Below, piece by piece: positions 2,960 to 23,165 of a stretch of 64,000 nucleotides of DNA. A program made the translations under genes and the position numbers. The DNA comes from an uncultured Candidatus Saccharibacteria bacterium (GTDB lineage: Bacteria; Patescibacteriota; Minisyncoccia; UBA6257; 1-14-0-10-44-23). The DNA is taken from positions 78,634 to 142,633 of the forward strand of contig CAZJVT010000003.1 of NCBI GenBank assembly GCA_964549935.1. Direction: 5' to 3'. The notes beneath the pieces were generated by a model, which was given only the letters and a program-made list of their open reading frames with translations, was not told the DNA's origin and ran no database searches. Position 1 is the stretch's first letter, and each line of letters begins with the position of its first letter.

Positions 2960-4500
2960 TCAGGAGTCGTCGAAGGCAGCGAGATCGACGTCGCCGCCGC
3001 GGCCGCCCATCGGACCATCATCCTCGATGGCGCTTCCCGCCTTCACCGCCTCGACGGCGCCGGCGACCACGTCCTTCGCCACCTCCGAGAAGCGCGAGAG
3101 GATCTCGAAGCCCTTACCCTTCTTCGACTGGCTCAGGCGAATGCTCGCCGTTTCCGTCAGGAACATCGACGGGTCGCCGCCCATCTCCTGGAACATCGCG
3201 CAGATCTCGGCGACGTTGAAATCGCCGCGCTTGAAGAACTTGTCCAGGTCGATACCCTTCCGGGACAGGAGGGCGCGAAGCTCCGCGACCAGGTCGATGT
3301 CCTTCTTCGCGGCGACCGCGAGGATCTCGTCGATGTCGATCGCGTCGGGGAGCCGCATGCTGTCGACATCGACGTTGGATCCGGTGAGCCGGGCCAGGCG
3401 CTTGGCCTCGTCGACCAGGCGCGGCACGCTCATGACGGGCTTGCCGGTGATGGTGCCGATCTCGCCAAGCTTGATCTTGCCGTCGCCGAGCTCGCCTGCC
3501 GTCTCGGCCCATGCCTTGATCCTGGTCTGGATCTCCTTCTCGCGCTCCTCGAGCTCGGACTTCATGGCCTTGATGCGGCCAAGGTCTCCGGCGGCTTCCA
3601 GGATGTCCTCGGGAACCTCGACGTCGATGGCCTTCCTCCGCTCGGGCCATGGCGGCAACTCGCCCTTCAGGACGAAGTCGTTCCAGAAGGTGGAGCCGGC
3701 GGCGACGAGCTCCTCGACCAGCTCCGGCTGGTAGGGCACCAGCTTCGGGTGCGGCTCGAACCGGTCGAGGTCGAACATGACGATGAAGCGGGCCTTGAAG
3801 CGAAGATCGAGCGTCGTCCGGCTGAGTTCGTCGTACTGGTGCAGCTGCGATTGCCAGTAGCTGGGCACCCCGCCGGAGACGTAGGTCGGGAAGGCGTTCG
3901 CCGAGGGGCACTTGTAGTCGACAAGGATCAGGTCCCCCGGCTCGAGGCGGAAGCCATCGAGGACACAGGAGACCCCGACCTTTACGATGTCGTCCGGGCT
4001 CGAGATCATCCAGCGGTGGACGGGATGCCGGCAGCCCGAAAGCTTCGCCAGCGCATCCTCATGGCTCTTCCCGCCGACCATGGCGTGGAAGGCATCCCGA
4101 ATGACGCCCTCCGAGCGGATGCCTCGAAGCATGTCGTCGCTCGGTGCGTCCGGCATGTACGCGAGCAGCTTCTCGCCGACGGTCTGGCGCGCGGTCTTGA
4201 AGGGGCTGGGCTCGCCGCGAAGCTCGTCGACGAGACCGCCAATCTCGGATCCGCCGATGCCGGTCAGCCGGCGCATGTGCCAGTAGCACCGCTTGGTGCC
4301 GCCGCCCTCGCGCTCGAGGATCATGCCGCACCAGCGGCGCGCCTTGTCCGGATCGAAGGACTGTCGGAGATGCGGCATGCCCGACAGCACGCGCATCATG
4401 TCCTTCTCCGCCCGCGTCCACTCAGCCGTGCCGGGACGGACGATCGCCGGCAGCGGCTCGGGAGCCGCCTGCGCCGGTTTATGAGCGAGGGCGGTGCTCA
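2960..4500 (-). CDS. YqaJ/lambda-exonuclease-like PD-(D/E)XK 5'-3' exonuclease with a roughly 250-aa C-terminal extension
   Basis: Start ATG (complement) at 4500 with GGGAAGGA RBS. The protein MSTALAHK... contains GIGGSEIGGLV and LILVDYKCP motifs (GxGxSE and the E.KCP-like hallmark of YqaJ/lambda Exo). The 820-aa ORF in the track is a run-on of this frame upstream of the real start. Confidence 0.65.
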
Positions 4501-4520
4501 TGCGAGAAGATCCTTCCCTG

Positions 4521-5346
4521 TTCAGGCGACGAACGCCGGCTCCGGGCGCCGCGCCGCGGCTGGCGTCGCCGGGAGGACGAGCTGGCGGTAGCTCTCCGGC
4601 AGGTCCGGCGAGAGCCGGCGGCCGGCATTGATCTGGTAGGAGCGGAAGATCGTCGATGCCTGGTTGCCGCGGATCGTGGCGAGAGGATCCGCGGGGTCGG
4701 TCTCGACGAGGCGCGCGGTCGTGAACTCCGCGACGACTTCCTCGACCAGCTTCTCGTAGCCGAGCGTCATGTCGTTGACCAGGTCGACCGTGAGGACGTC
4801 TGCGCCGAGATCGATGTAGGAGCGCGAGTCGGTGTAGCGCTTGAAGTCGCCGGTCGCCTTGTCGATCGCATGGATCCGGACGAGCATGACGTTCTCGCGG
4901 CCGAAGCGCTCGATCAGCGGCTCGTTCTCGCGGGTGAAGCCGGAATCCGCGATCAGGACGACCGAAGGATCGCTGGGGTTCGCCTCGCCGCCCATCATGC
5001 GATCGAGGCGCTGGAGGGCGAGCTCGCCGAAGATCCTCATGCCGTGGTGCGGCTTGTAGTAGGTCTCCGACACCGCGATGTAGGCTTCGCGCGGTGTCTT
5101 GCCTAGGAACCGCGGATTTGGAAGATCCTTGACCTCCTCGAAGTGATCGGGGCCGAGCGGTCGGCCGAATTCGTCGAAGAGCCCGTAAAGCGCGTGGGTG
5201 CGCTCCTTGAGCTCGTCGGCGAACTTCAGCTTGACCGGGCTGATGCCGAACTGGCCGTTGAACCCCTCGAGCACCGACGAGGTCGCCTTGCGGACCGAGT
5301 GATCCTTGCCGCAGCGCGGCGGTCCGTTGAACAGGCAGACGATCAT
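4521..5346 (-). CDS. P-loop kinase, phage dNMP-kinase-like
   Basis: N-terminus MIVCLFNGPPRCGKDH has a Walker A with the GKD variant typical of T4-type dNMP kinases. The stop lies 21 bp upstream of the exonuclease start on the same strand. Confidence 0.45.
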
Positions 5347-5439
5347 GGCGAAAACCCTGCGGCTCGGTGTCTGGTCCCGCCATTGTGCCACGCGGCGGCG
5401 AAAGCTCCAAACCTGTCGGCACATGCTTTTACAGCGTTC

Positions 5440-7481: not shown

Positions 7482-10265
7482 ATGCCACTCGATAACGTCG
7501 GCTCGTCCGATCCGACTTTCGCTACGGGCGATGGTCGTCGGAGATCTACGAGGCTGGGCCGCCGATCGAATCGGATCGCCCCGGACCCCCGTTATCAGGT
7601 CCAGGCGCTCGACGACATCGCCAGCACGCTGGCCGAGAACGATCGCGCAACCGCGGTCATGGCGTGCGGTGCCGGCAAGACGCTGGTTGCTCTGTGGACA
7701 GCCGAGCGCCAGAGCGCGCGCGTCATCCTTGTCCTGCTTCCGTCTCTGTCGCTCCTCAGCCAGACGCTGAAGACATGGAAGAGGGAGAATGTCTGGGGGA
7801 GCAGGTTCAGCTACATCTGCGTCTGCTCGGACGAGACCGTCGACGCCGGCACCGACGATCCGTCGATGGACGAAGGCTCGATTGATTTCCCGATCGACAC
7901 CGACCCAGCCGAGGTGAGGAAGTTCCTCAGGTCTCGCATCGACGACGTCAAGGTCGTCTTCTCGACCTACCACTCGGCATCGATCGTCGGCGAGGCCGCG
8001 GCCAAGCTGAAAGCGTTCGACTTAGGTGTTTTCGACGAGGCACACCGGACCGCCGGCGCCGCCGGCCGCTCCTTCGGCTTCGCTCTCTCTGACAGGAACA
8101 TTCGGATTCGCAAGCGCCTGTTCATGACGGCGACGCCGCGCCACGTTGATATCCGGCATCGCGATCGTGACGGTGACTTCTGCTCCCGGTCGATGGACGA
8201 CGAGGAGATCTACGGCCCACGCGCCTACACCCTCTCCTTCGCCAAGGCGGTGCGGCTCGGGATCATCTCACGCTACAAGGTCATCGTCTCGATGATCGAT
8301 AAGAAGATGGTCTCGGATTTTGCGCGCAAGCATGGAATCACTCTCGTCAAGGGCGATGCGATCGCTGCCACGAAGATCGCCAACCTGATCGCGATGCGCC
8401 AGGCGATCGGAGCGGTCGACGCGCGCAAGATCATCACCTTCCATGGCCGCGTTCAGCGAGCGAAGGACTTCGCCTCCGATCGTGACGACGGCATCGCACG
8501 CTATCTCGACGGCTTCGAGGTACATCACGTAAACGGCAAGCAGGCCAGTGGAGAGCGCGGCGGCATCATCCGGTCCTTCGCCGAAGCCGATCGCAGCCTC
8601 ATCACGAACGCCAGGTGCCTGACAGAAGGCGTCGACGTCCCGGCGGTCGACATGGTCGCCTTCATCGATCCCAAGCAGAGCCGGATCGACATCGCCCAGG
8701 CCGTCGGCCGAGCCATGCGTAAGCCGCGGGGCCCGACGAGGAAGATCTGCGGCTACGTGGTCATCCCGTTGTTCGCCGGCATGGACGGTGATGATCTTGA
8801 AGATGCGATCAAGGACGGCCGCTTCGACGCGATCGCCGAGGTCGTCAACGCGCTGCAAGAGCATGACGAGGAACTTGTCGAGATCATCAAGGGTATCCGC
8901 GAGCGGAAGGGCGCCGGCGAGAGTTCCTATGGCGGCGAGCTCGGTGACACGATCGAAGCAATTGGCCCTTTCGTGGATCTCGACAAGCTAGCGGCGAGCA
9001 TCGCGGTCGAGGTCGCTGACCGGATCGGTTCCGGCTGGGATGAATGGTATGGGCGACTGAAGAGTTTCGCTGAACGCGCAGGACATTGCAGCGTACCGAG
9101 AGATTACAGAGAGGGCGGATTTAATCTCTCACGGTGGGTTGCTTATCAGCGCCATGCCGCAAAGAAGCTGTCGCCGGATAAGCGGGCAAAACTCGACTCG
9201 ATTGGTTTTTCTTGGAATGTGCGCGCTGATGAGTTCGATAAGGGATATTCGGTCCTCGTGGCTTATCATGCTCGCGAAGGCCATACTCGAGTCCCCTCGC
9301 GTCACATGGAAAGTGGCTTTCGCCTGGGGTCTTGGGTCGCCTCCCGGCGCAAGCACTGCGACAGAATGTCGACTACCCAGAGAGCATCGCTCGACGCGAT
9401 CGGCTTCATCTGGGATCCGTTCGCCGAAGACTTCATGCATGGACTCAACCAGCTCGTTGCTTTCAAGGCGCGCACCGGACACTGCCGGGTACAGGATGGG
9501 TACAAGTCAGAGGGGTTCGATCTCGGAACCTGGGTAGGCACGCAACGCAGGAATCGAGATACCCTGTCCACGGACCGCAAAGCGAAGCTCGATGACATCG
9601 GCTTCATCTGGGATCCGTTCGCCGAAGACTTCATGCGCGGGCTCAACCAGCTCGCTGCTTTCAAGGCGCGCACCGGACACTGCCGGGTACACCCTAAACA
9701 CAAGGAAGACGGATTTAATCTCGGGGCCTGGGTAGGTACGCAACGCAGGAATCGAGATACCGTGACAGTTGACCGTAAGGCGAAGCTCGACGCGATCGGC
9801 TTCATCTGGGATCCGCTAGTCGAAGACTTCATGTGCGGGCTCGCCGCGCTTACTGCTTTCAGAGCCCGCAACGGCCATTGCCGATTGCCTGCAGGGCACA
9901 AGGAAGGTGAATTCAACCTCGCGAACTGGGTCAATAACCTGCGCGCACGAAATAGACGAAACAACTTGCCGGCAGATCGCAAGGCGATGCTCGATGGCAT
10001 CGGTTTCATCTGGGACCCACTGACCGATACCTTGATTCGAGGGCTCGCCCTGCTCAAAGCTTTCCAATCCACCAATGGCCACTGTCGGGTGCCTTTCAGC
10101 TACAAGGTCGACGAATTCAACCTTGGAACCTGGGTCTGGAAGCTACGCAAAAGGCGAGACCTGTCGCCTGACTTCAAGGAGGCGCTCGACAAAATCGGCT
10201 TCTATGAAAACATGACCTATGCCGCGGGAGTATCAGCCAACACATCTAAAGTCATGGCTTCATGA
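7482..10265 (+). CDS. Superfamily-2 DEAH-box helicase (ResIII-like N-terminus) with a C-terminal array of helicase-associated (HA) domain repeats
   Basis: Motif I AVMACGAGKTLVAL, motif II VFDEAHR, motif III MTATP, motif VI-like QAVGRAMR. The C-terminal 400 aa are six or seven roughly 66-aa repeats with W..W/LG.WV...R and G(F/H)IWDP signatures typical of HA domains. Confidence 0.75.
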   Translation: MPLDNVGSSDPTFATGDGRRRSTRLGRRSNRIAPDPRYQVQALDDIASTLAENDRATAVMACGAGKTLVALWTAERQSARVILVLLPSLSLLSQTLKTWKRENVWGSRFSYICVCSDETVDAGTDDPSMDEGSIDFPIDTDPAEVRKFLRSRIDDVKVVFSTYHSASIVGEAAAKLKAFDLGVFDEAHRTAGAAGRSFGFALSDRNIRIRKRLFMTATPRHVDIRHRDRDGDFCSRSMDDEEIYGPRAYTLSFAKAVRLGIISRYKVIVSMIDKKMVSDFARKHGITLVKGDAIAATKIANLIAMRQAIGAVDARKIITFHGRVQRAKDFASDRDDGIARYLDGFEVHHVNGKQASGERGGIIRSFAEADRSLITNARCLTEGVDVPAVDMVAFIDPKQSRIDIAQAVGRAMRKPRGPTRKICGYVVIPLFAGMDGDDLEDAIKDGRFDAIAEVVNALQEHDEELVEIIKGIRERKGAGESSYGGELGDTIEAIGPFVDLDKLAASIAVEVADRIGSGWDEWYGRLKSFAERAGHCSVPRDYREGGFNLSRWVAYQRHAAKKLSPDKRAKLDSIGFSWNVRADEFDKGYSVLVAYHAREGHTRVPSRHMESGFRLGSWVASRRKHCDRMSTTQRASLDAIGFIWDPFAEDFMHGLNQLVAFKARTGHCRVQDGYKSEGFDLGTWVGTQRRNRDTLSTDRKAKLDDIGFIWDPFAEDFMRGLNQLAAFKARTGHCRVHPKHKEDGFNLGAWVGTQRRNRDTVTVDRKAKLDAIGFIWDPLVEDFMCGLAALTAFRARNGHCRLPAGHKEGEFNLANWVNNLRARNRRNNLPADRKAMLDGIGFIWDPLTDTLIRGLALLKAFQSTNGHCRVPFSYKVDEFNLGTWVWKLRKRRDLSPDFKEALDKIGFYENMTYAAGVSANTSKVMAS
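9390..10200. repeat. Intragenic tandem DNA repeats of about 198 bp encoding the HA-domain array
   Basis: Near-identical stretches begin near 9397, 9597, 9795 and 9996. For example, cgatcggcttcatctgggatccgttcgccgaagacttcatgc occurs at about 9397 and about 9597. Identity is at the nucleotide level, not only the protein level. Confidence 0.7.
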
Positions 10266-10429: not shown

Positions 10430-11077
10430 ATGTCCGCCAACACCGCCAAGCGCAGCCTTTCACTCGCCGCCGCCATGCTCGCGGCCACGCTCGTTTCCTC
10501 ACCGGCTTCCGCCGATCTCCGCAACATCATCCAGAGCCAGCTGCAGGGGCAGCTCCAGCAGCGCGCGATGCCCGGCGTCGCTGCCGGGGTCCCCACCATC
10601 CAGCGGCCGCAGGGCTTTGCGCCCAGCGCCTCCTTCCAGACCTGCTTCACGCCCGGCAACGACTGCACCGGGCTGATCGTGCAGACGATCCGCGAGGCGC
10701 GCAGCCAGGTCCTGGTCATGGCCTACGAGTTCACGTCCGATCCGATCGAGCAGGCCCTGCTCGACGCGAAGCGTCGTCGCCTCGATGTCCGTGTCGTCCT
10801 CGACAAGACCCAGACCCAGCCGAACCGGCGCTCGGCGCGCCTCTTCACCCAGACCGGCATCCCGGTCGTGATCGATGCGCAGCCGGCGATCGCGCACAAC
10901 AAGGTGATGATCCTCGACGGCGTGTCGGTGATCACCGGCAGCTTCAACTTCACGCTCTCCGCCCAGACGCGCAACGCCGAGAACGTGCTGATCGTGCGGA
11001 ACGCGCCCGAGCTCGCGCGGGGCTACATCGGCAACTGGGAAGCGCGCGCCCGGGCCAGCCAGGCGTTCGGAGGTTGA
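10430..11077 (+). CDS. nuc: Nuc-like phospholipase-D-family endonuclease with signal peptide
   Basis: The N-terminal region AAAMLAATLVSSPASA is signal-peptide-like. A single HKD motif HNKVMILDGVSVITGSFNFT (HxKx4Dx6GSxN) is present. Size and architecture resemble the plasmid periplasmic nuclease Nuc. RBS GGAGGAAG precedes the ATG. Confidence 0.7.
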   Translation: MSANTAKRSLSLAAAMLAATLVSSPASADLRNIIQSQLQGQLQQRAMPGVAAGVPTIQRPQGFAPSASFQTCFTPGNDCTGLIVQTIREARSQVLVMAYEFTSDPIEQALLDAKRRRLDVRVVLDKTQTQPNRRSARLFTQTGIPVVIDAQPAIAHNKVMILDGVSVITGSFNFTLSAQTRNAENVLIVRNAPELARGYIGNWEARARASQAFGG

Positions 11078-12241: not shown

Positions 12242-13095
12242 CCTGCCGCCTTCCATCGGTCGATCTCGACAAGCGATGGCTCGATCGTCGCGAACGCTGG
12301 GCGCGGCCCGACGTCGTCTTCGATCCCCGCGGCTATGCGGTCGAGGTCGTGCCTGAGCGTCTCGCCCGGGATCTCGTCCTGGCCCATCACTACTCGGGAT
12401 CCTTCCCCGCGGCTCGCCTCTCCGTCGGCCTCTTCCGCAAGTCGGGTCCGGCTGCCGCGGCGGAGCTCGCCGGCGTCGCCGTCTTCTCCGTTCCTATGTC
12501 CTCCGCGGTGATCCCGGCACGCGTCGGCATTCCCGCTGCCGAGGGTGTCGAGCTCGGCCGCTTCGTCTGCCTGCCCGAGGTCGCCTTCAACGGCGAGACC
12601 TGGTTCCTTCGCCGCGCGCTCGCCGCCCTCCGCGTCGAGAAGCGAGAGGTTCGCGCGGTGCTCTCCTATGCCGACCCCCTCGAGCGATGGACAGAGGGCG
12701 GCCTCCTCTGCAAGCCCGCCCATTACGGCACCATCTACCAGGCCGGGAACGCGTCCTTCATCGGCCGCGCCAAACCCAGCTTCGTCGTCATGACCCGTGG
12801 AGGCCAGGTGGTCTCCGGCCGCTCGCTCTCGAAGATCAGGACGCAGGCTCGCGGCCACGTCTATGCGAGCGAGCAGCTCGAGGCCGCCGGCGCCGATCCG
12901 CGCCGACCGCTCGAGGATCCGTCCGACTGGCTTCGCCGCGTGCTGGTCGAGCCCGCCTTCGTGAAGGTCCGTCACCCCGGCAACTACTGCTATGCGTTCG
13001 GGCTCGATCGCGCGGTGAACCAGAACCTGAAGCCGCGGGCGCTCGCCTACCCGAAGAAGCCGACCCAGGCGCCGGAACTGGCGGAGGCCGCCTGA
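12238..13095 (+). CDS. Hypothetical protein with conserved HHYSGSFP motif (possible Mom-like/acyltransferase-fold enzyme, uncertain)
   Basis: GTG start overlaps the upstream stop (GTGA). The ORF-track entry 11845..13095 is an upstream run-on in the same frame. The protein has the LAHHYSGSFPAARLSVGLF and YCYAFG motifs. Confidence 0.4.
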   Translation: MTCRLPSVDLDKRWLDRRERWARPDVVFDPRGYAVEVVPERLARDLVLAHHYSGSFPAARLSVGLFRKSGPAAAAELAGVAVFSVPMSSAVIPARVGIPAAEGVELGRFVCLPEVAFNGETWFLRRALAALRVEKREVRAVLSYADPLERWTEGGLLCKPAHYGTIYQAGNASFIGRAKPSFVVMTRGGQVVSGRSLSKIRTQARGHVYASEQLEAAGADPRRPLEDPSDWLRRVLVEPAFVKVRHPGNYCYAFGLDRAVNQNLKPRALAYPKKPTQAPELAEAA

Positions 13096-13872: not shown

Positions 13873-14259
13873 CTAGTCGAGTTGCGGTCTACTACCCCAC
13901 CATCCCGCCAGCTGGCTAAGCACGTAGAAACCGGCGATGAAGACGATCAGGCCGATCAGGCCCTTCGCGTCGGCCCATATCTCCTGCCGGGTCATGGTCG
14001 GGGTCCGGCGAAGCCAGCTGATCAGGCCCCTGGCGCCCATGACATAGGCTGAACCGATCTGACCGAACGCGAAGGCCAGGGCCATGACCATGGCGATCGC
14101 CAGGCCGAGCCCGAAGATCATCCCCCAGTCCCAACCCAGGTAGATCAGGGCGCAGGCCGCCGCGGCGATCGCAACCAGGAGCGTGAACTCGCCATATCGC
14201 CTGACCAGGTAGTCAATGCGCTCGCCTGTTTTCATCGGGTCAGGTTGGTATCTCGCCAT
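13873..14259 (-). CDS. Integral membrane protein (3-4 predicted TM helices)
   Basis: Hydrophobic stretches LLVAIAAAACALIYLGW, MIFGLGLAIAMVMALAFAF and LIGLIVFIAGFYVL. Confidence 0.5.
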   Translation of the reverse strand: MARYQPDPMKTGERIDYLVRRYGEFTLLVAIAAAACALIYLGWDWGMIFGLGLAIAMVMALAFAFGQIGSAYVMGARGLISWLRRTPTMTRQEIWADAKGLIGLIVFIAGFYVLSQLAGWWGSRPQLD

Positions 14260-14372
14260 GGCTCGCGAACCAGATCATATTGCCTTCTCCGATGCGATCT
14301 CAAATCGCGGCGTGCCTGGATCCTGGGATTATGCAACTCTGATAAGTCATTTTTTTCAATGAATTAACCGAG

Positions 14373-14488
14373 TTATAGCGAGTTTATCTCAGTTTATGAT
14401 TTTTTCATAAACTTAGGTAACTTCCTTGAAATTAGGAAAGTAAGTATATATTATCAAAATCAGATAAACCGCCCTAAGGTCGCTATAA
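14373..14488. promoter_or_regulatory. AT-rich promoter with inverted repeat TTATAGCGA ... TCGCTATAA abutting the ATPase start codon
   Basis: TTATAGCGA at 14373..14381 and its exact reverse complement TCGCTATAA at 14480..14488. The ATG is at 14489. GTTTAT motifs are repeated in between. Confidence 0.4.
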
Positions 14489-15721
14489 ATGGACCCCAGA
14501 ACCAATCCCTATGCGCCCGGCGCCGGCTCCCAGCCGCCCGAGCTCGCGGGTCGTGACGAGATCCTGGAGAAGGCCGCGACCGCGCTCGACCGCATCAAGG
14601 CCGGCAAGCAGGCAAGGAGCCTGGTCCTCCACGGCCTTCGCGGGGTCGGCAAGACCGTGCTGCTCAACAAGATCCGGCGCGAGGCCGAGGCACGCGACAT
14701 CCAGAGCGTCGTCATCGAGGCGCCAGAGCATCGCTCCCTCCCCGGGATCCTGGTGCCGGCGCTGCGTGCCGTGCTGATCCGTCTCGATCGCGTCGAGGCC
14801 ACGAAGGCTATCTTCGGCAAGGCCAAGAAGGCGCTCGCCGGCCTGGCGAAGGCCGCGAAGGTGAAATACGAGGACGTCGAGTTCGGTCTCGACTTCGAGG
14901 TCGAGGACGGCCTGGCCGACTCCGGCGACCTCGAGCACGACCTGGGCGAGCTCTTCATGGCGGTCGGCGAGGCTGCCAAGGCGCGCAACACGGCGATCGT
15001 CCTCTACATCGACGAGGTGCAGTATGTGCCCGAGGAGCAACTGGCGGCCCTGATCTCCGCGCTGCATCGCGCGGCGCAGGAGATGCTGCCGGTGACCATG
15101 CTCGCCGCCGGCCTGCCGCAGATCCTGGGGCAGATGGGCAAGGCCAAGTCCTATGCCGAGCGTCTCTTCGAGTTCACCGAGATCGACAGCCTGGGCGCGG
15201 AGTCGGCGAAGAAGGCGCTCTGCAAGCCGGCGGAGGCCGAGAAAGTCACGTTCGAGCAGGGCGCGATCGACGAGATCCTCGAGCAGACCAAGGGGTATCC
15301 GTACTTCCTCCAGGAATGGGGCAAGCACAGCTGGAACATCGCGGCATCCTCGCCGATCACCGCGGCGAACGCGCGCGAGGCGACCAAGTCGGCGATCGCC
15401 GAGCTGGATGCGAGCTTCTTCAGCGTGCGCCTCGATCGCCTGGCGCCGGCGGAGAAGCTTTATCTCCGGGCCATGGCCGAGCTCGGGCCCGGACCGCACC
15501 GCTCGGGCGATATCGCCGCGAGCCTGGGCAAGCCGGTCAACCTCGTCGCACCTACGAGAAACAGCCTCATCGCCAAAGGTATGGTGTTCAGCAAGGCGCA
15601 TGGCGACACCGCCTTCACCGTGCCGCTCTTCGATGGCTTCATGAAGAGGGCCATGGTGTTCAAGCCCGAGGACGGACATAAGCGCAAGCGCGCGGCCGAG
15701 CCGAAGCCGCCGGGCATGTAG
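14489..15721 (+). CDS. AAA_16-type (Orc1/STAND-like) P-loop ATPase with C-terminal winged-helix-like region
   Basis: N-terminus NPYAPGAGSQPPELAGRDEIL then Walker A LHGLRGVGKTVLL. Walker B VLYIDEVQ. Confidence 0.65.
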   Translation: MDPRTNPYAPGAGSQPPELAGRDEILEKAATALDRIKAGKQARSLVLHGLRGVGKTVLLNKIRREAEARDIQSVVIEAPEHRSLPGILVPALRAVLIRLDRVEATKAIFGKAKKALAGLAKAAKVKYEDVEFGLDFEVEDGLADSGDLEHDLGELFMAVGEAAKARNTAIVLYIDEVQYVPEEQLAALISALHRAAQEMLPVTMLAAGLPQILGQMGKAKSYAERLFEFTEIDSLGAESAKKALCKPAEAEKVTFEQGAIDEILEQTKGYPYFLQEWGKHSWNIAASSPITAANAREATKSAIAELDASFFSVRLDRLAPAEKLYLRAMAELGPGPHRSGDIAASLGKPVNLVAPTRNSLIAKGMVFSKAHGDTAFTVPLFDGFMKRAMVFKPEDGHKRKRAAEPKPPGM

Positions 15722-15795
15722 GCGGCTTCGGCGAAGTTGCTATTTATCGCGTCTACTGCTATCTATAGTGACGACTGACAAGGGAAGGATCCCAG

Positions 15796-16290
15796 ATGCG
15801 CAGCCCCGTCCTCCTCCTCGGTACCGTCGCCGCACTCGCCCTTCTCGCCGGCGTTGCCGACGCCGCCGATCTTCCCTGCCCCGAGGGCACCTACCCGATC
15901 CACCGCGCGGCCGGAACCGGCCCGAGCTCGATCGAGCTCAAGCGCTACCCGGGCGAATGCTCGGTCAAGGTCGGCAACGAGTGGATGACGGTTCTTCCCG
16001 GCATGGTGAAGGCCCTCGCCGGAACCGATTTCCAGCCGGGCGCCAAGGGATCGGGCCAGGCGATGGGCACCGGCGGCGCCTTCGACTTCGAGGCCAAGGT
16101 CCTTTCGAAGGAGGAGATCGACGTCGCCGGGGCGAAGGTCGAGACCGTGAAGATCGAGGCGACCTCTTCCCGGGTGAAGGACGTCTGGACTGCCTGGTAC
16201 GTGCCGGCCACGGGCATGGTGGTCCGCTATCGCTTCGTGGGTCCCTACCAGTCCTCGGACTGGCAGGTGACGAAGATGCCGGCGCGCTGA
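15796..16290 (+). CDS. Exported hypothetical protein (signal peptide)
   Basis: MRSPVLLLGTVAALALLAGVADAAD is signal-peptide-like. A CTATCTATAG -10-like box lies upstream. Confidence 0.5.
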   Translation: MRSPVLLLGTVAALALLAGVADAADLPCPEGTYPIHRAAGTGPSSIELKRYPGECSVKVGNEWMTVLPGMVKALAGTDFQPGAKGSGQAMGTGGAFDFEAKVLSKEEIDVAGAKVETVKIEATSSRVKDVWTAWYVPATGMVVRYRFVGPYQSSDWQVTKMPAR

Positions 16291-17527: not shown

Positions 17528-18049
17528 CTAGCCGCCCATGGCCGGACCGATGTCGATTGTCTTCACCTCGCTCTCGATCGTCGCGCCGTGCTCCTTGAGC
17601 AGCCAGGCAGCTACAGCCGGAGCGACCACATCGCGAATGCTCCGCTTGTCGTCGTCACCTGAGGTGGCCACCTCGCCGGCTGCAAGCTCCAGACAGATCG
17701 CGAGAGCCTTCATCGGCGTCATCGTCCCACCATCTTCCGGGGTCGGCGCCGGCGAGTGCTCTATGTCCATGATCGAGGACGGATCGGAGCGGACGATCTC
17801 TACGAGGGCCGGCCCGAAGCGCTTGTCGAGCGCCTCGCCATGGTTGGTGACGAAATCGACGAGCGTTCTGATCGCCTCCTCCTGCCACTTCAGCTGGTCG
17901 ACCAGGCTGTCGTCGCCATGGTTGTCTTCCGGATCCATCTGGTTGCCCTGCGCGGCTTCGGCCACCGCCTCGAGAGCATCGGAGATCATCGTTCCGCTGT
18001 CGCTCGGCGGAAATCCGGCGGGGCGCCGCGGGGCCTCTTCGAGACTCAT
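17528..18049 (-). CDS. Hypothetical acidic protein, paralog 1 downstream of Fic
   Basis: Its start overlaps the Fic stop (ATGA). Paralogous to 16999..17523. Confidence 0.5.
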   Translation of the reverse strand: MSLEEAPRRPAGFPPSDSGTMISDALEAVAEAAQGNQMDPEDNHGDDSLVDQLKWQEEAIRTLVDFVTNHGEALDKRFGPALVEIVRSDPSSIMDIEHSPAPTPEDGGTMTPMKALAICLELAAGEVATSGDDDKRSIRDVVAPAVAAWLLKEHGATIESEVKTIDIGPAMGG

Positions 18050-19746
18050 GGTTCCAATCCCTTCTGTTTCCTGGAAGATGGATCTGCCGGCTCCGGCGTC
18101 TTGCCGCTGACCGGAATTCGGTGGTCCATCGCAACGGCGACTGCGCGCTCGGCCGCTGCGACCTGGGTGTCGTCGAGATCGGCGAACAGGCTCTTGCGCT
18201 TCTTCTTCGAGAGCGCTCCGCCGTTCTCGTGGATCAGCTTTGCGAGAAGCTCGGCATTATCCTTTGGCATGCCCGTCGCGCCGCGTACGCCGGCGACGGC
18301 GTCGTCGAATCCCTCGATGAAGGCGATCTCGTGGGGCAGGTCGCGCTCGACCGTCTGCTCGACGCACCGGTAGAGGAATTCGGTCTGCCGGGTGAGATCC
18401 ATGTAGCGGTAGTGACGGCCGCGGGCCTCGCCGCTTCCGGCGCCCTTGACCTTGAGGGCCCCGTCGTCGTCGAGCGACCATGACAGGCGATCCAGAAGCG
18501 GCCGCGAGAAGCCCTCGAGGGCGCGGTCGTAGCCATCCATGTCGCGAAGCATCGCCGCCGATACCGGGAGGATGCCGCCCTGGGGCGTATAGCCGGTCGA
18601 GGCCAGGGTCGAATGCACCAGGAAGCGGCTGGTCCGGCCGTTGCCGTCCTCGAAGGGGTGGATGTAGACGAGCCCGAACTTGAGCAGGGCGGCGACGACG
18701 ACCGGATCCGTGCCGGCGCCCGCCAGGCGATTGGCCTGCGCCACCAGGCCGCGCATCATGCCGCCGACCTGCGCCGGATCCGGGCTGATGTAGTCCACCA
18801 CCCCGCGGTTGCCGCCGCCGCTCCGCTTGAAGACGTAGTTCGACGTGTTGCGGTAGCCTGTCCTGCGATCGGTGCCGGCGAGAACCTCGGCGACGACGTT
18901 CTGGATCTCGTGCTCGGATAGCTGGGGCGCGCCGCCTCGTCGGCCCTGGGACCCGGCGGATCGCGCCAGCATCTGGACGAAGCGCCGCTCCTTTTCCGGA
19001 CTGGGCTTCTCCTGCTCGATCGCGAAGCTGTCCCTGGTCTCCTTGGCGAAGAGCCAGCCGGCGGCGCGGCGCGCGGTCTCTGGATCGGCTTCAGCGACGA
19101 TGCGGCGGGCACGGCCGGACAGGTCCAGGGCGCGCATCGACTCGATCTCGCCGGTGATCCACACCATCGGGCACCATTCGGGCGTGCCAGGCATGTTGTC
19201 GACGACATGGTGGCGGCGCGATCTCGTGCCCATCGCCGGCGCCACCTGCATCTTCACGTCGATCGCCGGGACGTAGAAGCCCTCGATCGCGCTGTCGGGC
19301 AGCTCGAGCTGGCGGCCGGTGAGCCATTCGGCGAGGAACCAGGCGCGCCTGGCATGCCGGCCGGTCGGTTCCGACCGCACCCAGTCGGCGACATGACGGC
19401 CGGCGAGATCGGAGGCTGGGGATGCCTGGAAGAGGTCGGCGAGGACAGCGAGGTTCACGCCTTCGTTGCGAAGGGCGAAGTCAAGGTGCCAGGCGAGGAA
19501 CCGCGGGTCCTCGCCGCCGCCGAGAGCGTCCGGCTTCGGTGCCTGGTGCGGACGATGGCGGATCCAGGTCCTGCCGCTGATCGGGTCCTCGATCTCGGCC
19601 TTCTTCCAGCTGTCGCCGGTCGAAGCGCAGCGCAGCGGCCGATCGACGATCGGGTCGAGGCCGTAGGCCGCGATCAGGGCCGCATAGCCGAGGGGGACGG
19701 TGCCGGTCGGGGATTCCATGACCATCGCAGGATCGTTATGGAGCAC
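18046..19746 (-). CDS. Fic/Doc-family protein (probable AMPylase) with a long N-terminal domain
   Basis: Canonical Fic motif HPFEDGNGRTSRFL. The start is uncertain (GTG at 19746, or ATG at 19722/19716). The antisense ORFs are Arg-rich. Confidence 0.75.
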   Translation of the reverse strand: MLHNDPAMVMESPTGTVPLGYAALIAAYGLDPIVDRPLRCASTGDSWKKAEIEDPISGRTWIRHRPHQAPKPDALGGGEDPRFLAWHLDFALRNEGVNLAVLADLFQASPASDLAGRHVADWVRSEPTGRHARRAWFLAEWLTGRQLELPDSAIEGFYVPAIDVKMQVAPAMGTRSRRHHVVDNMPGTPEWCPMVWITGEIESMRALDLSGRARRIVAEADPETARRAAGWLFAKETRDSFAIEQEKPSPEKERRFVQMLARSAGSQGRRGGAPQLSEHEIQNVVAEVLAGTDRRTGYRNTSNYVFKRSGGGNRGVVDYISPDPAQVGGMMRGLVAQANRLAGAGTDPVVVAALLKFGLVYIHPFEDGNGRTSRFLVHSTLASTGYTPQGGILPVSAAMLRDMDGYDRALEGFSRPLLDRLSWSLDDDGALKVKGAGSGEARGRHYRYMDLTRQTEFLYRCVEQTVERDLPHEIAFIEGFDDAVAGVRGATGMPKDNAELLAKLIHENGGALSKKKRKSLFADLDDTQVAAAERAVAVAMDHRIPVSGKTPEPADPSSRKQKGLEP

Positions 19747-19922: not shown

Positions 19923-22900
19923 ATGCACGATAAATCAACCGTCAGGCCCTCCCTCCCCGCCGTCCAGATGGCTACAGGCAGCGGTTCTGGGCCGGATGTC
20001 GAGGCCATGCCGCTCCCGGAGCTCCAGCCGGGCCAGTATTGGCGTGCCAACAGGGAGATGCCGGAGGGCGACCGCGGCCGGGAGTGGTCGGGGGCCTGGG
20101 AGGTCGGCTTTTCCTACCTGGTCAAGGACCTGAAGGTCGTCGACGGGCGCCTCCATACCGTCGTCCTGCATCCCCATCCGCTGAGCGACTACCAGCACGA
20201 CACCGAGATGCTGGCCCGGCATTTCTTCGCCGCGTTCGAGCGCGATCTCGATCCGGACGTGTCCCGTGCCGCCGACATGAAGGCGCTGCAGGAACGCATC
20301 GGGCAGATCAACCAAGAGATCGCCGACGGCCCGAGGCTGGAGGATGTCTCGACCGCCGCCCAAAGGCGCCTGATCGAAGCCGGCACGGCAACCCCTCGGC
20401 CGGAGGCGGCCGGCGCAGGCGCTCTTTCCATCAGCGAGACCGATATCCAGAAGGCGCAGAAGCGTTCGGGCGCCCTGCTGGAGGTCAGCAAGAAGAAGGC
20501 CGCCTGGCTCCAGCAGCGGGTCGAAGCCGTCGGCGAGACCGCCAGCCGGATCGCTCTCTTCGGCCGCGAGAAGGCGGAGACCGCCCTTGCCCAGGTCAAG
20601 GACGTGCTGCGATACGCGCAGCACCTCGAGGAAGGCATCGAGACGCTCGGCCTCTACACCGGCAAGGACGTGCAGGTGCAAATGCTGTGCGACGGGCCGC
20701 TCGCCTCCGACGATGCGCCGCTTTCGATCTTCCAGCGCCGTCTCTACATGGACGAGGAATTCCTTGTCCATCTGGCGGAGGGTGGCGCCACCTGGCGTGA
20801 CGTCGAAAGCTTCGGCAAGGCGCTCGGTGAAGACGAGACGCTGCTGGACCGCATCATCCCGTCGGAACGCGGCGTCGTCTGCATGCGCTATCGGCGCCAC
20901 GAGAAGCAGATCGATCTCGGGGAATTCAAGACGGTGGCCGAGGCTTTCAGCGCGGGCCTCAAGGCGCAGGAAGAAGAGGCCCGCAACAGGACGACTTTCC
21001 TCCTGATCCGAGACGGCCGTCGCGTTTGGCAGGTCTGGTCCGAGATCTCGACCGACAACAGCCCGCGCCTGTTCCCGACGATGAAGGAAGTCGACAAGCC
21101 GTTCGTCGGATGGGGCTGGCACGGAGAGGAGAAGCAGCGGATCGACCTCGAGGACATCCGGTTCTCCGACAAGCTCGAGGAAAGTCGGCGGATCCAGCTG
21201 CACTATCGCCGTCTGCTGATCCTGCTCTGGGGACTCGACGATCGCGAGAACCTGGTCGGCCTCCGCCGCTCGGGTGATACGCGCAAATTCACCGACCTCT
21301 CCTTCCAGAAGGACCGCTTCGTCTTCATTTCCGACGATGACGAGGAGCGGCTTCTCAGCACCGGCCGCCCGTCTTTCAGAAAGTTCGCCGCCGAGCACAA
21401 CGCCATGCTTCGTTCCGGCTCCCGTGTGCTTTGCCTCTGGGGAAACCTACTCACGAGCGATACCGCGCCCGGCTGCGTGAAGTCGATCGATCGACGGTCG
21501 AGCCACGGTCCGCGCGACGAGGTCAGGCTGTGGCCCGACAACGACACCGACATCCTGATTGCCAGGAAGGATGGCGACGAGATCGTCGTCGACGTCGAGG
21601 CGTCGGGCGAGAAGCGCAGCTGGATGTACGACCGATACGAGACCTCGGGCCAGACGCGTCGCATCAAGGCGCGCGTGAGCCTGACCGCCTACAGGGAAGC
21701 AAGCATCGGCTTCCTTGTGCTCGACGCGATCAAGGCCGAGGATTTGAAGTTCTACTGCGAGTCGCGACTCGAGCGGCAGAGCTATCTCCACTACCTCTCC
21801 ACGTTCATTGCCGCCCGCAAGCATGTCGAAACCGTGCGCGAGGCCGAAGTCGAGTCCCGCGATGTGCTCGCCAATGGCCTGAAGGCGGCGGGCTTGTTCG
21901 ATGACGAGCGTTGTGCCGGCGTCCTCGACGAAGCGATCCTCGCTTGGCGCGCACGGAACCGCGGCAAGGCGTTGCCCGGTCCGCTCGATCCAGAATGGAA
22001 GGCTGCCGCGACCGCCATCTACGGCTTCTGCTGGATCGCGCTCGGCAAGGATATCGACCTGGAGCCGATCGCGACCGACCTCGCGGCGAAGGGCGGCCGC
22101 AAGCCGCTGCGCCTGGTGCTGACAGGCAACAACCAGGTGATCCTCTATGCGTCCTCGACGGCGAACGAGATGCAGGACGCGCTCGGGAACTGGCCATGGG
22201 TCACCCGGATCGCTTGCCGGCGACTGCGGAAGGCACCATGGCTGGCGGTCGAAGGAGAAAGCTTCGCCATCCTCCCGGCGCGCGCCGCGGACGAGCGCGT
22301 GCTGACCGAATGGCCGGAGGCGACGAAATGGATCGACCTCGTCGATCACGACAAGATCGGCCCCGATGGCAGGCGCGAGCTCGTTGCCTGGCTTAGAGAC
22401 GCCGCCGCGGCTGCTCCTCAGCTGATCGCGCCCTCCCGCCATCTGGTCGAGACCATGCTGAAGGAGGCGACCGAGCTCAGCCGCCTGAACTCGAAAGGAA
22501 TGGTGAGGCGGCCCGACGTCGTGATCCCGTTCGCGATCGTCAGGAAGAAGGAAGTGGAATTCCGCCAGCCGGACGCATGTCGTGTCCTCGCAATGCGCAT
22601 CGATGCCTTCTGGTGGTGCTGGCGCCATGGGCTTGCCGCGGAGACCGAAGAGGCTCTGAGGGGGCGTTACAGCAGGCCGGGGACGCATGTCCGGCAGCTT
22701 CGCGGCGAAAACGATCCGGAAGGCGAGGATCGCGCCTGGTCGGGAGACTTCGAGGCGTCGCTGGTCTCGTTGTCGTCCAAGGATGTGGTCAGGGCTCTCG
22801 ACGATGGGCAGAGCCTCCCGAACCTCATCGATGCCCATGTCTACGACAGCGTTCCGATCAACGAAGGCCACTTCGAAGCCCTGCAGGACATCCTCCGCGA

Positions 22901-23165
22901 TGGCCGTAGCAACTGGATGTTCGGGGAGAGGTTCGCCTACCGCAAGAATCGATCGAAGCCTGCTGCCTGGGACTTCGTTTTGAAGATCAAGGACGCCTGG
23001 GCGCTCGCCGTTCCGTTCAGCGACAGCTCCCGACGTCCCGGGAAGCCGGCCCCGAAGCCGGAAGCGGATGACGAGGCGGAGCAGGAGGACGCCAGACCGG
23101 CCGAGCAGGACGATGAGGATGATCAGGATGACGGGCCCGCAGCGCAGGAGGATCTGAATCCATGA
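19923..23165 (+). CDS. Large hypothetical protein (1080 aa) with an acidic C-terminal tail
   Basis: Continuous ORF with natural composition. Both long antisense ORFs are Arg/Gly/Pro-rich. -35/-10-like TTGACG...GCTAAACT lies upstream. No motif recognisable by eye. Confidence 0.6.
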   Translation: MHDKSTVRPSLPAVQMATGSGSGPDVEAMPLPELQPGQYWRANREMPEGDRGREWSGAWEVGFSYLVKDLKVVDGRLHTVVLHPHPLSDYQHDTEMLARHFFAAFERDLDPDVSRAADMKALQERIGQINQEIADGPRLEDVSTAAQRRLIEAGTATPRPEAAGAGALSISETDIQKAQKRSGALLEVSKKKAAWLQQRVEAVGETASRIALFGREKAETALAQVKDVLRYAQHLEEGIETLGLYTGKDVQVQMLCDGPLASDDAPLSIFQRRLYMDEEFLVHLAEGGATWRDVESFGKALGEDETLLDRIIPSERGVVCMRYRRHEKQIDLGEFKTVAEAFSAGLKAQEEEARNRTTFLLIRDGRRVWQVWSEISTDNSPRLFPTMKEVDKPFVGWGWHGEEKQRIDLEDIRFSDKLEESRRIQLHYRRLLILLWGLDDRENLVGLRRSGDTRKFTDLSFQKDRFVFISDDDEERLLSTGRPSFRKFAAEHNAMLRSGSRVLCLWGNLLTSDTAPGCVKSIDRRSSHGPRDEVRLWPDNDTDILIARKDGDEIVVDVEASGEKRSWMYDRYETSGQTRRIKARVSLTAYREASIGFLVLDAIKAEDLKFYCESRLERQSYLHYLSTFIAARKHVETVREAEVESRDVLANGLKAAGLFDDERCAGVLDEAILAWRARNRGKALPGPLDPEWKAAATAIYGFCWIALGKDIDLEPIATDLAAKGGRKPLRLVLTGNNQVILYASSTANEMQDALGNWPWVTRIACRRLRKAPWLAVEGESFAILPARAADERVLTEWPEATKWIDLVDHDKIGPDGRRELVAWLRDAAAAAPQLIAPSRHLVETMLKEATELSRLNSKGMVRRPDVVIPFAIVRKKEVEFRQPDACRVLAMRIDAFWWCWRHGLAAETEEALRGRYSRPGTHVRQLRGENDPEGEDRAWSGDFEASLVSLSSKDVVRALDDGQSLPNLIDAHVYDSVPINEGHFEALQDILRDGRSNWMFGERFAYRKNRSKPAAWDFVLKIKDAWALAVPFSDSSRRPGKPAPKPEADDEAEQEDARPAEQDDEDDQDDGPAAQEDLNP

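Follow-up and report, generated by a model that had tools for sequence, protein, structure and literature searches.

Nucleotide-switched oligomerization is reportedly the accepted mechanism of STAND NTPases that act as transcription factors, a view attributed to Leipe et al. 2004. Among the archaeal Orc1/Cdc6 proteins, one that is not an initiator (Orc1-2) is presented, in two papers on Sulfolobus/Saccharolobus, as a transcription regulator (PMC6061795, PMC9738581). Here we analyze a bacterial gene whose product resembles both groups, together with the DNA directly upstream of it. The gene lies in a 64,000-nt stretch of contig CAZJVT010000003.1, from an uncultured Candidatus Saccharibacteria bacterium; "the window" denotes this whole stretch. 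In the list of open reading frames (ORFs) of the window, the gene is the forward-strand ORF at 14489–15721, which encodes a 410-residue AAA_16 ATPase, and a dyad-symmetric element of ~60 bp ends at its start codon, as it does in homologous loci. On balance, and with modest confidence, comparison of these sequences leads us to read the locus as a self-contained, horizontally spread unit, in which an autorepressed Orc1/Cdc6-like (STAND-core) ATPase travels with its own operator-promoter.

A dyad element at the ATPase start codon

The gene is preceded by ~160 bp of AT-rich intergenic DNA, with a GC content of 0.30 over positions 14330–14491, compared to ~0.66 in the flanking DNA. Within this region, TTATAGCGA and TCGCTATAA form a perfect 9-bp inverted repeat with a spacing of 98 bp; the right arm stops at 14488 and the ATG begins at 14489. 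An AT-rich promoter region with such a repeat running up to the ATG had been pointed out in a preliminary description of this DNA, and its coordinates were verified. Taken by itself, the repeat is weak evidence and not beyond chance, as perfect inverted repeats of at least 9 bp arose in 532 of 5000 mononucleotide shuffles (10.6%) of the AT-rich stretch. We take it as real because the dyad is conserved among homologous loci.

Alignment of 78 non-redundant upstream regions (130 nt), from several phyla, gave the consensus (TTGA)tTTATAGCGAnnTTAnnnnAnnTTATCnAAAnnnGATAAACTnnGnTAAnnTCnCTATAA-ATG, and in nearly all of these loci a dyad of ~60 bp ends at the start codon. Column counts resolve the dyad into six TTA-type half-sites, three plus three, which face inward and lie 10–11 bp apart. 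Four of these are invariant or almost so (TTA at columns 30–32 and 40–42, TAA at columns 54–56 and 64–66), with the outermost pair weaker (TTA at columns 19–21, TAA at columns 75–77). The conservation is mirror-symmetric, and the center of the dyad spans only 5–7 bp. Opposing arm positions can pair in 71.6% of cells, compared to 36–42% when the partners are slid, and the covariation score of the arms is 0.243 versus ~0.1.

A profile hidden Markov model (HMM) of the element, built from the 78 homologous upstream regions, was run with nhmmer on the window and gave two matches, at 14370–14425 (E = 3e-8) and 14433–14487 (E = 2e-7), and none elsewhere. Copy 1 is complete except for its right outer arm, which has diverged to CCTTGAAA, and no gene directly follows it; this type of arm recurs as ...CTTGAA-ATG in two other loci (L018 and L023). 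Copy 2 has a good right half and degenerate left outer and middle arms. The tandem arrangement is an exception, in that 83 other loci have a single element each, always at the ATPase start and never in the flanks. Further operator copies, such as would mark a regulon, were found neither in the window nor in the ~12-kb flanks around the 83 loci. The perfect repeat spans both copies, with one 9-mer in the left arm of copy 1 and the other in the right arm of copy 2, which points to a partial duplication or to an insertion inside a single ancestral element. No conserved 3' element or terminator was found, and conservation ends at the stop codon.

The arrangement extends to more distant homologs. 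At 33–52% identity (Actinomycetota, Chlamydiota and Betaproteobacteria), phased AT-rich repeats reach to ~10–20 nt from the start in five of six cases, with phased TATA/TTA repeats in each of the five (Rhodococcus, Dietzia, Pseudarthrobacter, Arthrobacter and Protochlamydia plasmids). The exception is the Clavibacter copy (L085), where GAGACAAGG repeats are found together with a normal Shine-Dalgarno sequence.

We also scanned metagenome contigs and viral contigs with an 18-base skeleton of the dyad, blind to the protein, and obtained matches in at least 120 metagenome stretches and in three viral-contig stretches. Among the matches listed, 52 of the ~64 supported by the element HMM adjoin an ATPase start, the commonest gap being exactly 12 nt; these 52 stretches have a median GC content of 0.62 and a median HMM score of 35 bits. 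About 59 of the 123 listed score low, mostly in low-GC DNA, and are probably due to chance. Among the 123 there are also ~10 solo elements that score high and have no gene next to them (e.g. L151, L110, L203, L180/L215, L182 and L140). Behind the element in L105 (3242–3405) and L163 (3602–3750) comes an ATPase remnant with an internal deletion, which keeps the last 25–37 residues. Solo elements and remnants may be decay products or end-preserving derivatives.

Might the element be bound by some other host or plasmid factor, such as a global regulator or nucleoid protein, with the ATPase as regulated cargo? AT-rich DNA in GC-rich genomes is a usual target of nucleoid-associated silencers, and genes for Lsr2, MvaT and HU do occur near some plasmid copies. 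Yet the element is found in Alpha-, Beta- and Gammaproteobacteria, Actinomycetota, Chlamydiota and metagenome-assembled genomes (MAGs) of other phyla, and no gene other than the ATPase is co-inherited with it. It occurs once per locus, at that gene only, and the scan that was blind to the protein arrives at the ATPase again. The half-site spacing is also unlike that of the CtrA box (TTAA-N7-TTAA), and the CACA that DnaA boxes include is not conserved, as judged from column counts against the consensus sequences of these sites. We regard binding by another factor as very improbable. The simplest reading is that the ATPase would bind its own promoter, because the element is co-inherited with the ATPase gene alone and the gene product ends in a winged helix.

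Promoter, leader and form of the element

The best sigma-70-like match in the window (14426–14454; Table 1) takes as its –10 the left inner half-site of copy 2, TATTAT, and implies a leader of ~27 nt with no good Shine-Dalgarno sequence. When columns of the alignment are held fixed, the best reading places the –35 at columns 39/40 (TTTATC) and the –10 at the near-invariant TAAnnT of columns 64–69, with a spacer of 18–19 nt. In sphingomonads, the left inner half-site alone is changed and reads TTTACA, nearer to the –35 consensus, which fits a –35 at columns 39/40. Whichever register of hexamers holds, the predicted promoter is within the operator. The repression that had been read from the 9-bp repeat can thus reasonably be supposed of the larger element, since the repeat belongs to a deeply conserved dyad that overlaps promoter-like hexamers.

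The 78 aligned regions share no conserved Shine-Dalgarno sequence. Together with the position of TAAnnT, 8 nt from the ATG, this makes a leaderless or short-leadered mRNA probable, in which case the operator would act on DNA and not on RNA.

The alternative is that the palindrome acts as a hairpin, either as a stem in the 5' untranslated region that hides the start codon or as a promoter or priming signal of single-stranded DNA on conjugative entry. Single strands do fold much more stably than shuffled sequences (z = –6.2 for L076, –11.0 for L004 and –4.6 for 123 nt of the window), and the arms covary, also at positions between the invariant triplets. A TTGA found ~60 nt upstream in about half of the loci could start a transcript with the entire stem, and some copies reside on conjugative plasmids. 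However, pairing of 71.6% is low for a functional hairpin, and mismatches other than wobble account for 22% of cells. Mismatches of the G:T and A:C types are equally common (160 versus 133, P = 0.13), so neither strand is favored, and conservation is concentrated in the phased TTA/TAA triplets rather than in pairing. Copy 2, the one at the gene, does not fold alone (z = –0.26); Rfam 15 offers only a microRNA model as its best match (20 bits versus a threshold of 68, E = 0.24); and many copies are chromosomal, amid housekeeping genes. We consider a hairpin quite improbable. With no strand bias in the mismatches and pairing at only 72%, the element fits better as a double-stranded, dyad-symmetric protein-binding site than as a hairpin of RNA or single-stranded DNA.

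The ATPase and its fold

The protein begins with MDPRTNPYAPGAG, followed by LAGRDEIL and then GLRGVGKT. AAA_16 (PF13191) matches residues 18–202 with 59.1 bits, against a cut-off of 32.6; the cut-off of AAA_22 is passed too, that of nSTAND6 is barely reached, and the Pfam matches of the ATPase to nSTAND6 and nSTAND1 are weak. With the hhGRExE, Walker A, Walker B and GxP motifs all present (Table 1), the AAA_16/STAND-like assignment of the preliminary description holds for the core. It does not extend to a classical multidomain STAND protein, as the closest folds are those of Orc1/Cdc6 and PABY2304. Pfam shows an NTPase and no sensor or effector domain in the 410 residues, and the C-terminal 123–155 residues match no Pfam family even at E values up to 10. 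Nor are larger architectures common in the family: 145 of the 150 representatives listed are under 431 residues long and three are over 440.

The AlphaFold2 (AF2) model (pLDDT 85, pTM 0.82) comprises an AAA+ domain, a lid and a winged helix, with an insert of ~90 residues between strand 2 and Walker B. The winged helix, seen in the model and by Foldseek, bears out the earlier suggestion of a winged helix-turn-helix-like tail, and it presumably serves as the DNA reader. Residues of the winged helix are invariant among 49 homologs, as is R225, a candidate arginine finger.

Searched with Foldseek against the PDB, the model finds 2qby, 2v1u (Orc1/Cdc6 of Sulfolobus and Aeropyrum on origin DNA, matched over the full length), 2qen and 1fnn (Cdc6 of Pyrobaculum) at the top, and then RuvB. 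The Orc1/Cdc6 matches (2qby_A at E = 8.4e-10, 2v1u_A and 1fnn_A) have a probability of 1.00 and template modeling (TM) scores of 0.45–0.54, and the best TM-score, 0.55 / 0.63, belongs to 2qen, the Pyrococcus Walker-type ATPase PABY2304. At the level of sequence, the Orc1/Cdc6 model TIGR02928 is missed (30.5 bits versus 181.3), its match being confined to residues 15–70, and ATPase_2 (PF01637) is missed as well (21.8 bits versus 33.2). A sequence search for solved relatives gave P-loop matches only, to DnaI-type helicase loaders and FtsY. The ATPase is thus predicted to fold like Orc1/Cdc6 or a STAND core, yet it is a member of neither curated family.

Two further features of the protein concern its less ordered parts. 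A conserved acidic segment of the insert between strand 2 and Walker B (residues 123–147, …KYEDVEFGLDFEVEDGLADSGDLEHDL…), in which Y127, D129, E131 and G146 are invariant, is disordered in the AF2 model; it lies approximately where AAA+ proteins of the initiator clade have a DNA-contacting insert. The protein of the window also has an extra basic tail of ~18 residues (395–410, modeled with low confidence), absent from most homologs (~392 residues).

Distribution and gene context

Relatives of the ATPase are numerous. More than 8000 clusters at 90% identity match it, the best 120 of which are all ~66–70% identical and mostly ~392 residues long; 902 clusters at 50% identity have E values below 1e-30, and relatives occur in at least 563 stretches of species-representative genomes. 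Among the matches listed, the hosts are Alpha-, Beta- and Gammaproteobacteria, along with MAGs labeled Gemmatimonadota, Planctomycetales and Elusimicrobia. The gene is also found in 89 plasmid records, including Rhodococcus, Arthrobacter, Clavibacter and one Protochlamydia plasmid. Databases name these proteins just 'ATP-binding protein' or 'AAA family ATPase', and some homologs carry precomputed PF01637 matches. In Pfam, NCBIfam, Rfam and the full-text literature that we searched, we met with no description of the ATPase family or the element, and both family and operator appear to be undescribed in these sources.

To look for partners, we clustered all ORFs within 4 kb of the ATPase at 79 loci in an all-against-all comparison. 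No neighbor is common to more than six of the loci, and those six are syntenic relatives. The preliminary description was therefore right to call the gene stand-alone. The one partner that it had proposed, the exported protein encoded at 15796–16290, is found beside the ATPase in the window only and is absent from all other loci.

The ATPase is often flanked by housekeeping genes. In marine alphaproteobacterial MAGs (L048, L050, L062, L064, L079 and L082), a 1.25-kb unit sits between Ham1-family and radical-SAM genes with essentially no spare DNA (e.g. L048, 5938–7185), which looks like the precise insertion of a single-gene cassette into a housekeeping cluster. Neighbors on plasmids vary, and include tra, mobC/relaxase and parAB genes as well as those for metal resistance, toxin-antitoxin and restriction-modification systems, Lsr2, MvaT and HU. 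Among phage genomes, a single record has the gene, in an unverified contig of actinobacterial character. We considered this contig as a minimal replicon and rejected the idea, since it is a GC-rich, actinobacterial-looking fragment and not a small plasmid.

The plasmid records bear on the possibility that the protein is an initiator and the element its origin, with an Orc1/Cdc6-like protein on inverted half-sites driving or licensing replication of the carrier plasmid or island. The best structural matches are indeed to Orc1/Cdc6 on origin DNA, and the element, AT-rich and with inward-facing repeats beside an initiator-like gene, recalls archaeal Orc1 on inverted origin recognition box (ORB) elements beside its own gene. 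In several of the 89 plasmid records the gene lies beside parA/parB, and several of these plasmids have no typed replicon. Their annotation is no guide to missing Rep genes, since too many genes are labeled 'hypothetical'. Other carrier plasmids, however, do have typed replicons; in the Dietzia plasmid the gene is ~30 kb from parA; and many copies are single genes amid chromosomal housekeeping genes. The element has a center of only 5–7 bp and lacks a distinct unwinding region, the gene is linked to neither a helicase nor a loader, and the TIGR02928 score is far under the cut-off. An initiator therefore seems to us very doubtful, as does the broader idea that the ~1.25-kb unit is a bacterial counterpart of the archaeal orc1/cdc6-origin pairing, a portable module in which the ATPase assembles on the phased, inward-facing repeats and opens or licenses DNA; the latter we would call scarcely probable. 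If it were so, the unit would represent an unrecognized type of replicon or replication control on plasmids and islands of Proteobacteria and Actinomycetota, and the snug single-gene insertions, solo elements and deleted remnants would hint that the unit itself moves.

A role in immunity, which the preliminary description had raised in the form of a single-protein defense NTPase, would be compatible with autoregulation. Here the protein would be a minimal STAND sensor, kept scarce by autorepression and acting on invading phage or plasmid DNA. It has STAND-type motifs and the weak nSTAND6/nSTAND1 matches, and its distribution is patchy and horizontally driven, with 65–70% identity across phyla. 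Its neighbors in the window include Fic/PDC-S24, Mom-like, PLD nuclease and helicase genes, and some plasmid copies lie near restriction-modification, toxin-antitoxin or cyclic-oligonucleotide-based anti-phage signaling system (CBASS) genes. Against this, the protein lacks an effector domain, a conserved partner and a defense-island context, and matches to defense libraries are sub-threshold or confined to the P-loop (PADLOC-DB 2.0: best mad8, 8.5e-7, P-loop half only; NCBIfam defense model DS41_1: 16 bits versus 370). Few flanking genes fit PADLOC models, with at most three matches for any single model, many copies reside amid housekeeping genes, and the gene is nearly absent from phage genomes (the one record above). 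A defense role is thus unsupported, and we judge it unlikely.

A transposition helper of the TniB/IstB kind, with its transposase just outside the context, had been named beforehand as the finding that would overturn the proposed regulatory or defensive role. One homolog is labeled 'DNA transposition AAA+ family ATPase', and there is a weak match to phrog_296, 'DNA transposition protein' (E = 8.5e-4). Pfam, however, gives no match to a transposition-helper family, and no transposase family recurs in the flanks of the 78 loci. To our knowledge, TniB/IstB proteins do not end in a winged helix. This role is effectively refuted, and we assign it a negligible probability.

Features and neighboring genes in the window

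Coordinates of the features discussed are collected in Table 1.

Table 1. Features of the ATPase locus (positions in the window, unless a locus is named)
Feature	Position	Strand	Details
Dyad copy 1	14370–14425		nhmmer E = 3e-8; sequence, repeats
Inverted-repeat left arm, TTATAGCGA	14373–14381		Left outer arm of dyad copy 1
Copy 1 left half-sites	14373–14378, 14382–14388, 14392–14399		TTATAG, GTTTATC, GTTTATGA
Copy 1 right half-sites	14405–14412, 14416–14421		TCATAAAC, GGTAAC
Best sigma-70-like promoter match	14426–14454	+	TTGAAA, 17 nt, TATTAT; 10/12 matches
Dyad copy 2	14433–14488		Abuts ATG; nhmmer E = 2e-7; sequence, alignment consensus
Copy 2 half-sites	14450–14455, 14464–14470, 14475–14479, 14483–14488		ATTATC, GATAAAC, TAAGG, CTATAA
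Alternative –10, TAAGGT	14475–14480	+	Near-invariant TAAnnT (columns 64–69), 8 nt before ATG
Inverted-repeat right arm, TCGCTATAA	14480–14488		Right outer arm of dyad copy 2
ATPase gene	14489–15721	+	AAA+ domain ~residues 40–235, lid ~237–316, winged helix ~320–388, basic tail 395–410
hhGRExE-type motif LAGRDEILE, residues 19–27	14543–14569	+	G21 and R22 invariant, E27 nearly so, in 49 homologs
Walker A GLRGVGKT, residues 49–56	14633–14656	+	Invariant in 49 homologs
Walker B VLYIDE, residues 171–176	14999–15016	+	D175 and E176 invariant in 49 homologs
GxP motif GYP, residues 269–271, lid	15293–15301	+	Y270 and P271 invariant, G269 nearly so, in 49 homologs
Winged helix, residues 320–388	15446–15652	+	Helices 320–332, 339–346 and 350–362; beta wing 373–375 (AF2)
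Exported-protein ORF	15796–16290	+	164 residues, signal-peptide-like N-terminus
Phased repeats, distant homologs	L088 ~3930–4000; L086 ~3935–4000; L090, L091, L093		

The exported-protein ORF downstream of the ATPase has no match in Pfam, PADLOC, NCBIfam or PHROG, and a promoter-like site and Shine-Dalgarno sequence of its own lie within 15738–15795. On the other side, a divergent ORF (13873–14259, reverse strand) encodes a hydrophobic, membrane-like protein of 128 residues with no family match. It has a promoter-like site, TTGAGA-18-TATGAT, at 14274–14303, ~70 bp from the dyad element, and, judged by eye only, is apparently missing from the other printed upstream regions.

Farther out, a gene for a Mom-family protein (12268–13095, forward strand; PF25680, E = 1e-21) lies ~1.4 kb upstream of the ATPase; in phage Mu, Mom has a DNA-modification, anti-restriction function. 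Upstream of that are genes for a 927-residue helicase (7482–10265, forward strand) and then a PLD-family (PLDc_2) protein (10430–11077, forward strand). The N-terminal half of the helicase matches the helicase part of type IIG/type I restriction enzymes (E = 3e-74), and its C-terminal half contains similar segments of ~65–70 residues in series (…GHCRVP…GFNLGxWV…IGFIWDP…). Downstream, a 566-residue Fic-domain protein (18046–19746, reverse strand) matches the PADLOC candidate defense family PDC-S24 over its full length (E = 7e-144), and a 1080-residue ORF (19923–23165, forward strand) has no match in Pfam, NCBIfam or PADLOC.

The window further encodes a UvrD-type helicase and a 1691-residue Strawberry-notch-like helicase (AAA_34 + Helicase_C_4), at 29489–31969 and 32531–37606, and a YqaJ-like recombinase domain at 2960–5422. 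Given these helicases and the recombinase domain, the window looks like the accessory region of a plasmid or integrative element. When 24 kb of it was compared with plasmids by megablast, no near-identical annotated record was found.

Discussion

If the ATPase does repress its own synthesis, the features described above suggest how it may do so. The winged helix would read the TTA half-sites, and nucleotide-dependent contacts between AAA+ domains would make binding cooperative, so that each arm could hold as many as three protomers, all on the same helical face. Once bound, this array would cover the promoter hexamers inside the dyad and thereby shut off the gene, and the tandem second copy in the window would add binding sites and tighten repression. 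By analogy with archaeal Orc1-2, the cellular output could be that of a nucleotide-switched DNA-binding regulator and not of a partner-dependent enzyme; this is the most speculative part of the proposal.

Several observations weigh against autorepression by the ATPase or limit what can be drawn from it. The link between protein and operator is one of co-inheritance alone, and the ~10 gene-less elements might be either remnants or sites in their own right. Partial covariation is also seen at the variable positions that separate the half-sites, whereas a pure protein-contact model needs none. Promoter hexamers cannot be placed uniquely, as the TTA repeats give several registers on either strand much the same score, and a strictly leaderless mRNA sits uneasily with the 10 of 78 starts that are TTG, GTG or CTG. 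Finally, autoregulation says nothing about the real task of the protein.

An anonymous and very common ATPase nonetheless becomes tractable, in that the element supplies its likely ligand DNA and confines the promoter to ~60 bp, which opens binding, its dependence on nucleotide and the geometry of the oligomer to direct tests. If autorepression is correct, the family would show, in bacteria, the bare AAA+/lid/winged-helix core of Orc1/Cdc6 and STAND proteins acting alone on DNA, with a bearing on the kinship of origin binders and STAND regulators. Were its output replication control or immunity, the family would be important for plasmid biology; were it only a self-limiting regulator, the result would be a useful annotation and no surprise.

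How does the locus compare with known systems? With TniB/IstB it shares a P-loop AAA+ ATPase on mobile DNA, and it differs in having no transposase partner, another domain set and no family match. Like iteron-plasmid Rep proteins, the ATPase is a winged-helix protein, often plasmid-borne, with inverted half-sites over its own promoter. Those proteins, however, lack an AAA+ domain and have separate direct iterons at the origin, whereas the ATPase loci have the dyad only and many copies are chromosomal.

The archaeal Orc1/Cdc6 proteins are closer. Both are of ~400 residues, with AAA+ domain, lid and winged helix in the same order (Foldseek E values of 8e-10 to 8e-9), and in both the gene lies beside AT-rich DNA with inward-facing repeats. 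Sequence likeness, though, is confined to the P-loop region, and the TM-scores are just ~0.45–0.55. The ATPase of the window has STAND-type hhGRExE and GxP motifs and the ~90-residue insert, its hosts are bacteria and no helicase is linked to it; its element, moreover, is unlike an origin with an unwinding region, being a dyad packed into 60 bp that overlies the promoter of the ATPase gene itself. PABY2304 gave the top TM-score, and several members of the family have PF01637 matches. We take PABY2304 to be of this ATPase_2 kind, and it presumably shares the N-terminal NPF/YxPG...GRExE lead-in with the window ATPase, which itself falls under the PF01637 cut-off. We know of no function assigned to PABY2304 and of no operator for it.

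With STAND transcription factors such as MalT and AfsR/LAL, the ATPase has in common the hhGRExE, Walker A/B and GxP motifs and a winged helix that follows a helical domain. Those factors have sensor repeats in addition and bind DNA through a separate effector domain, whereas the window ATPase is a bare core. In a bare core of 410 residues, it would fall to the winged helix to read the DNA.

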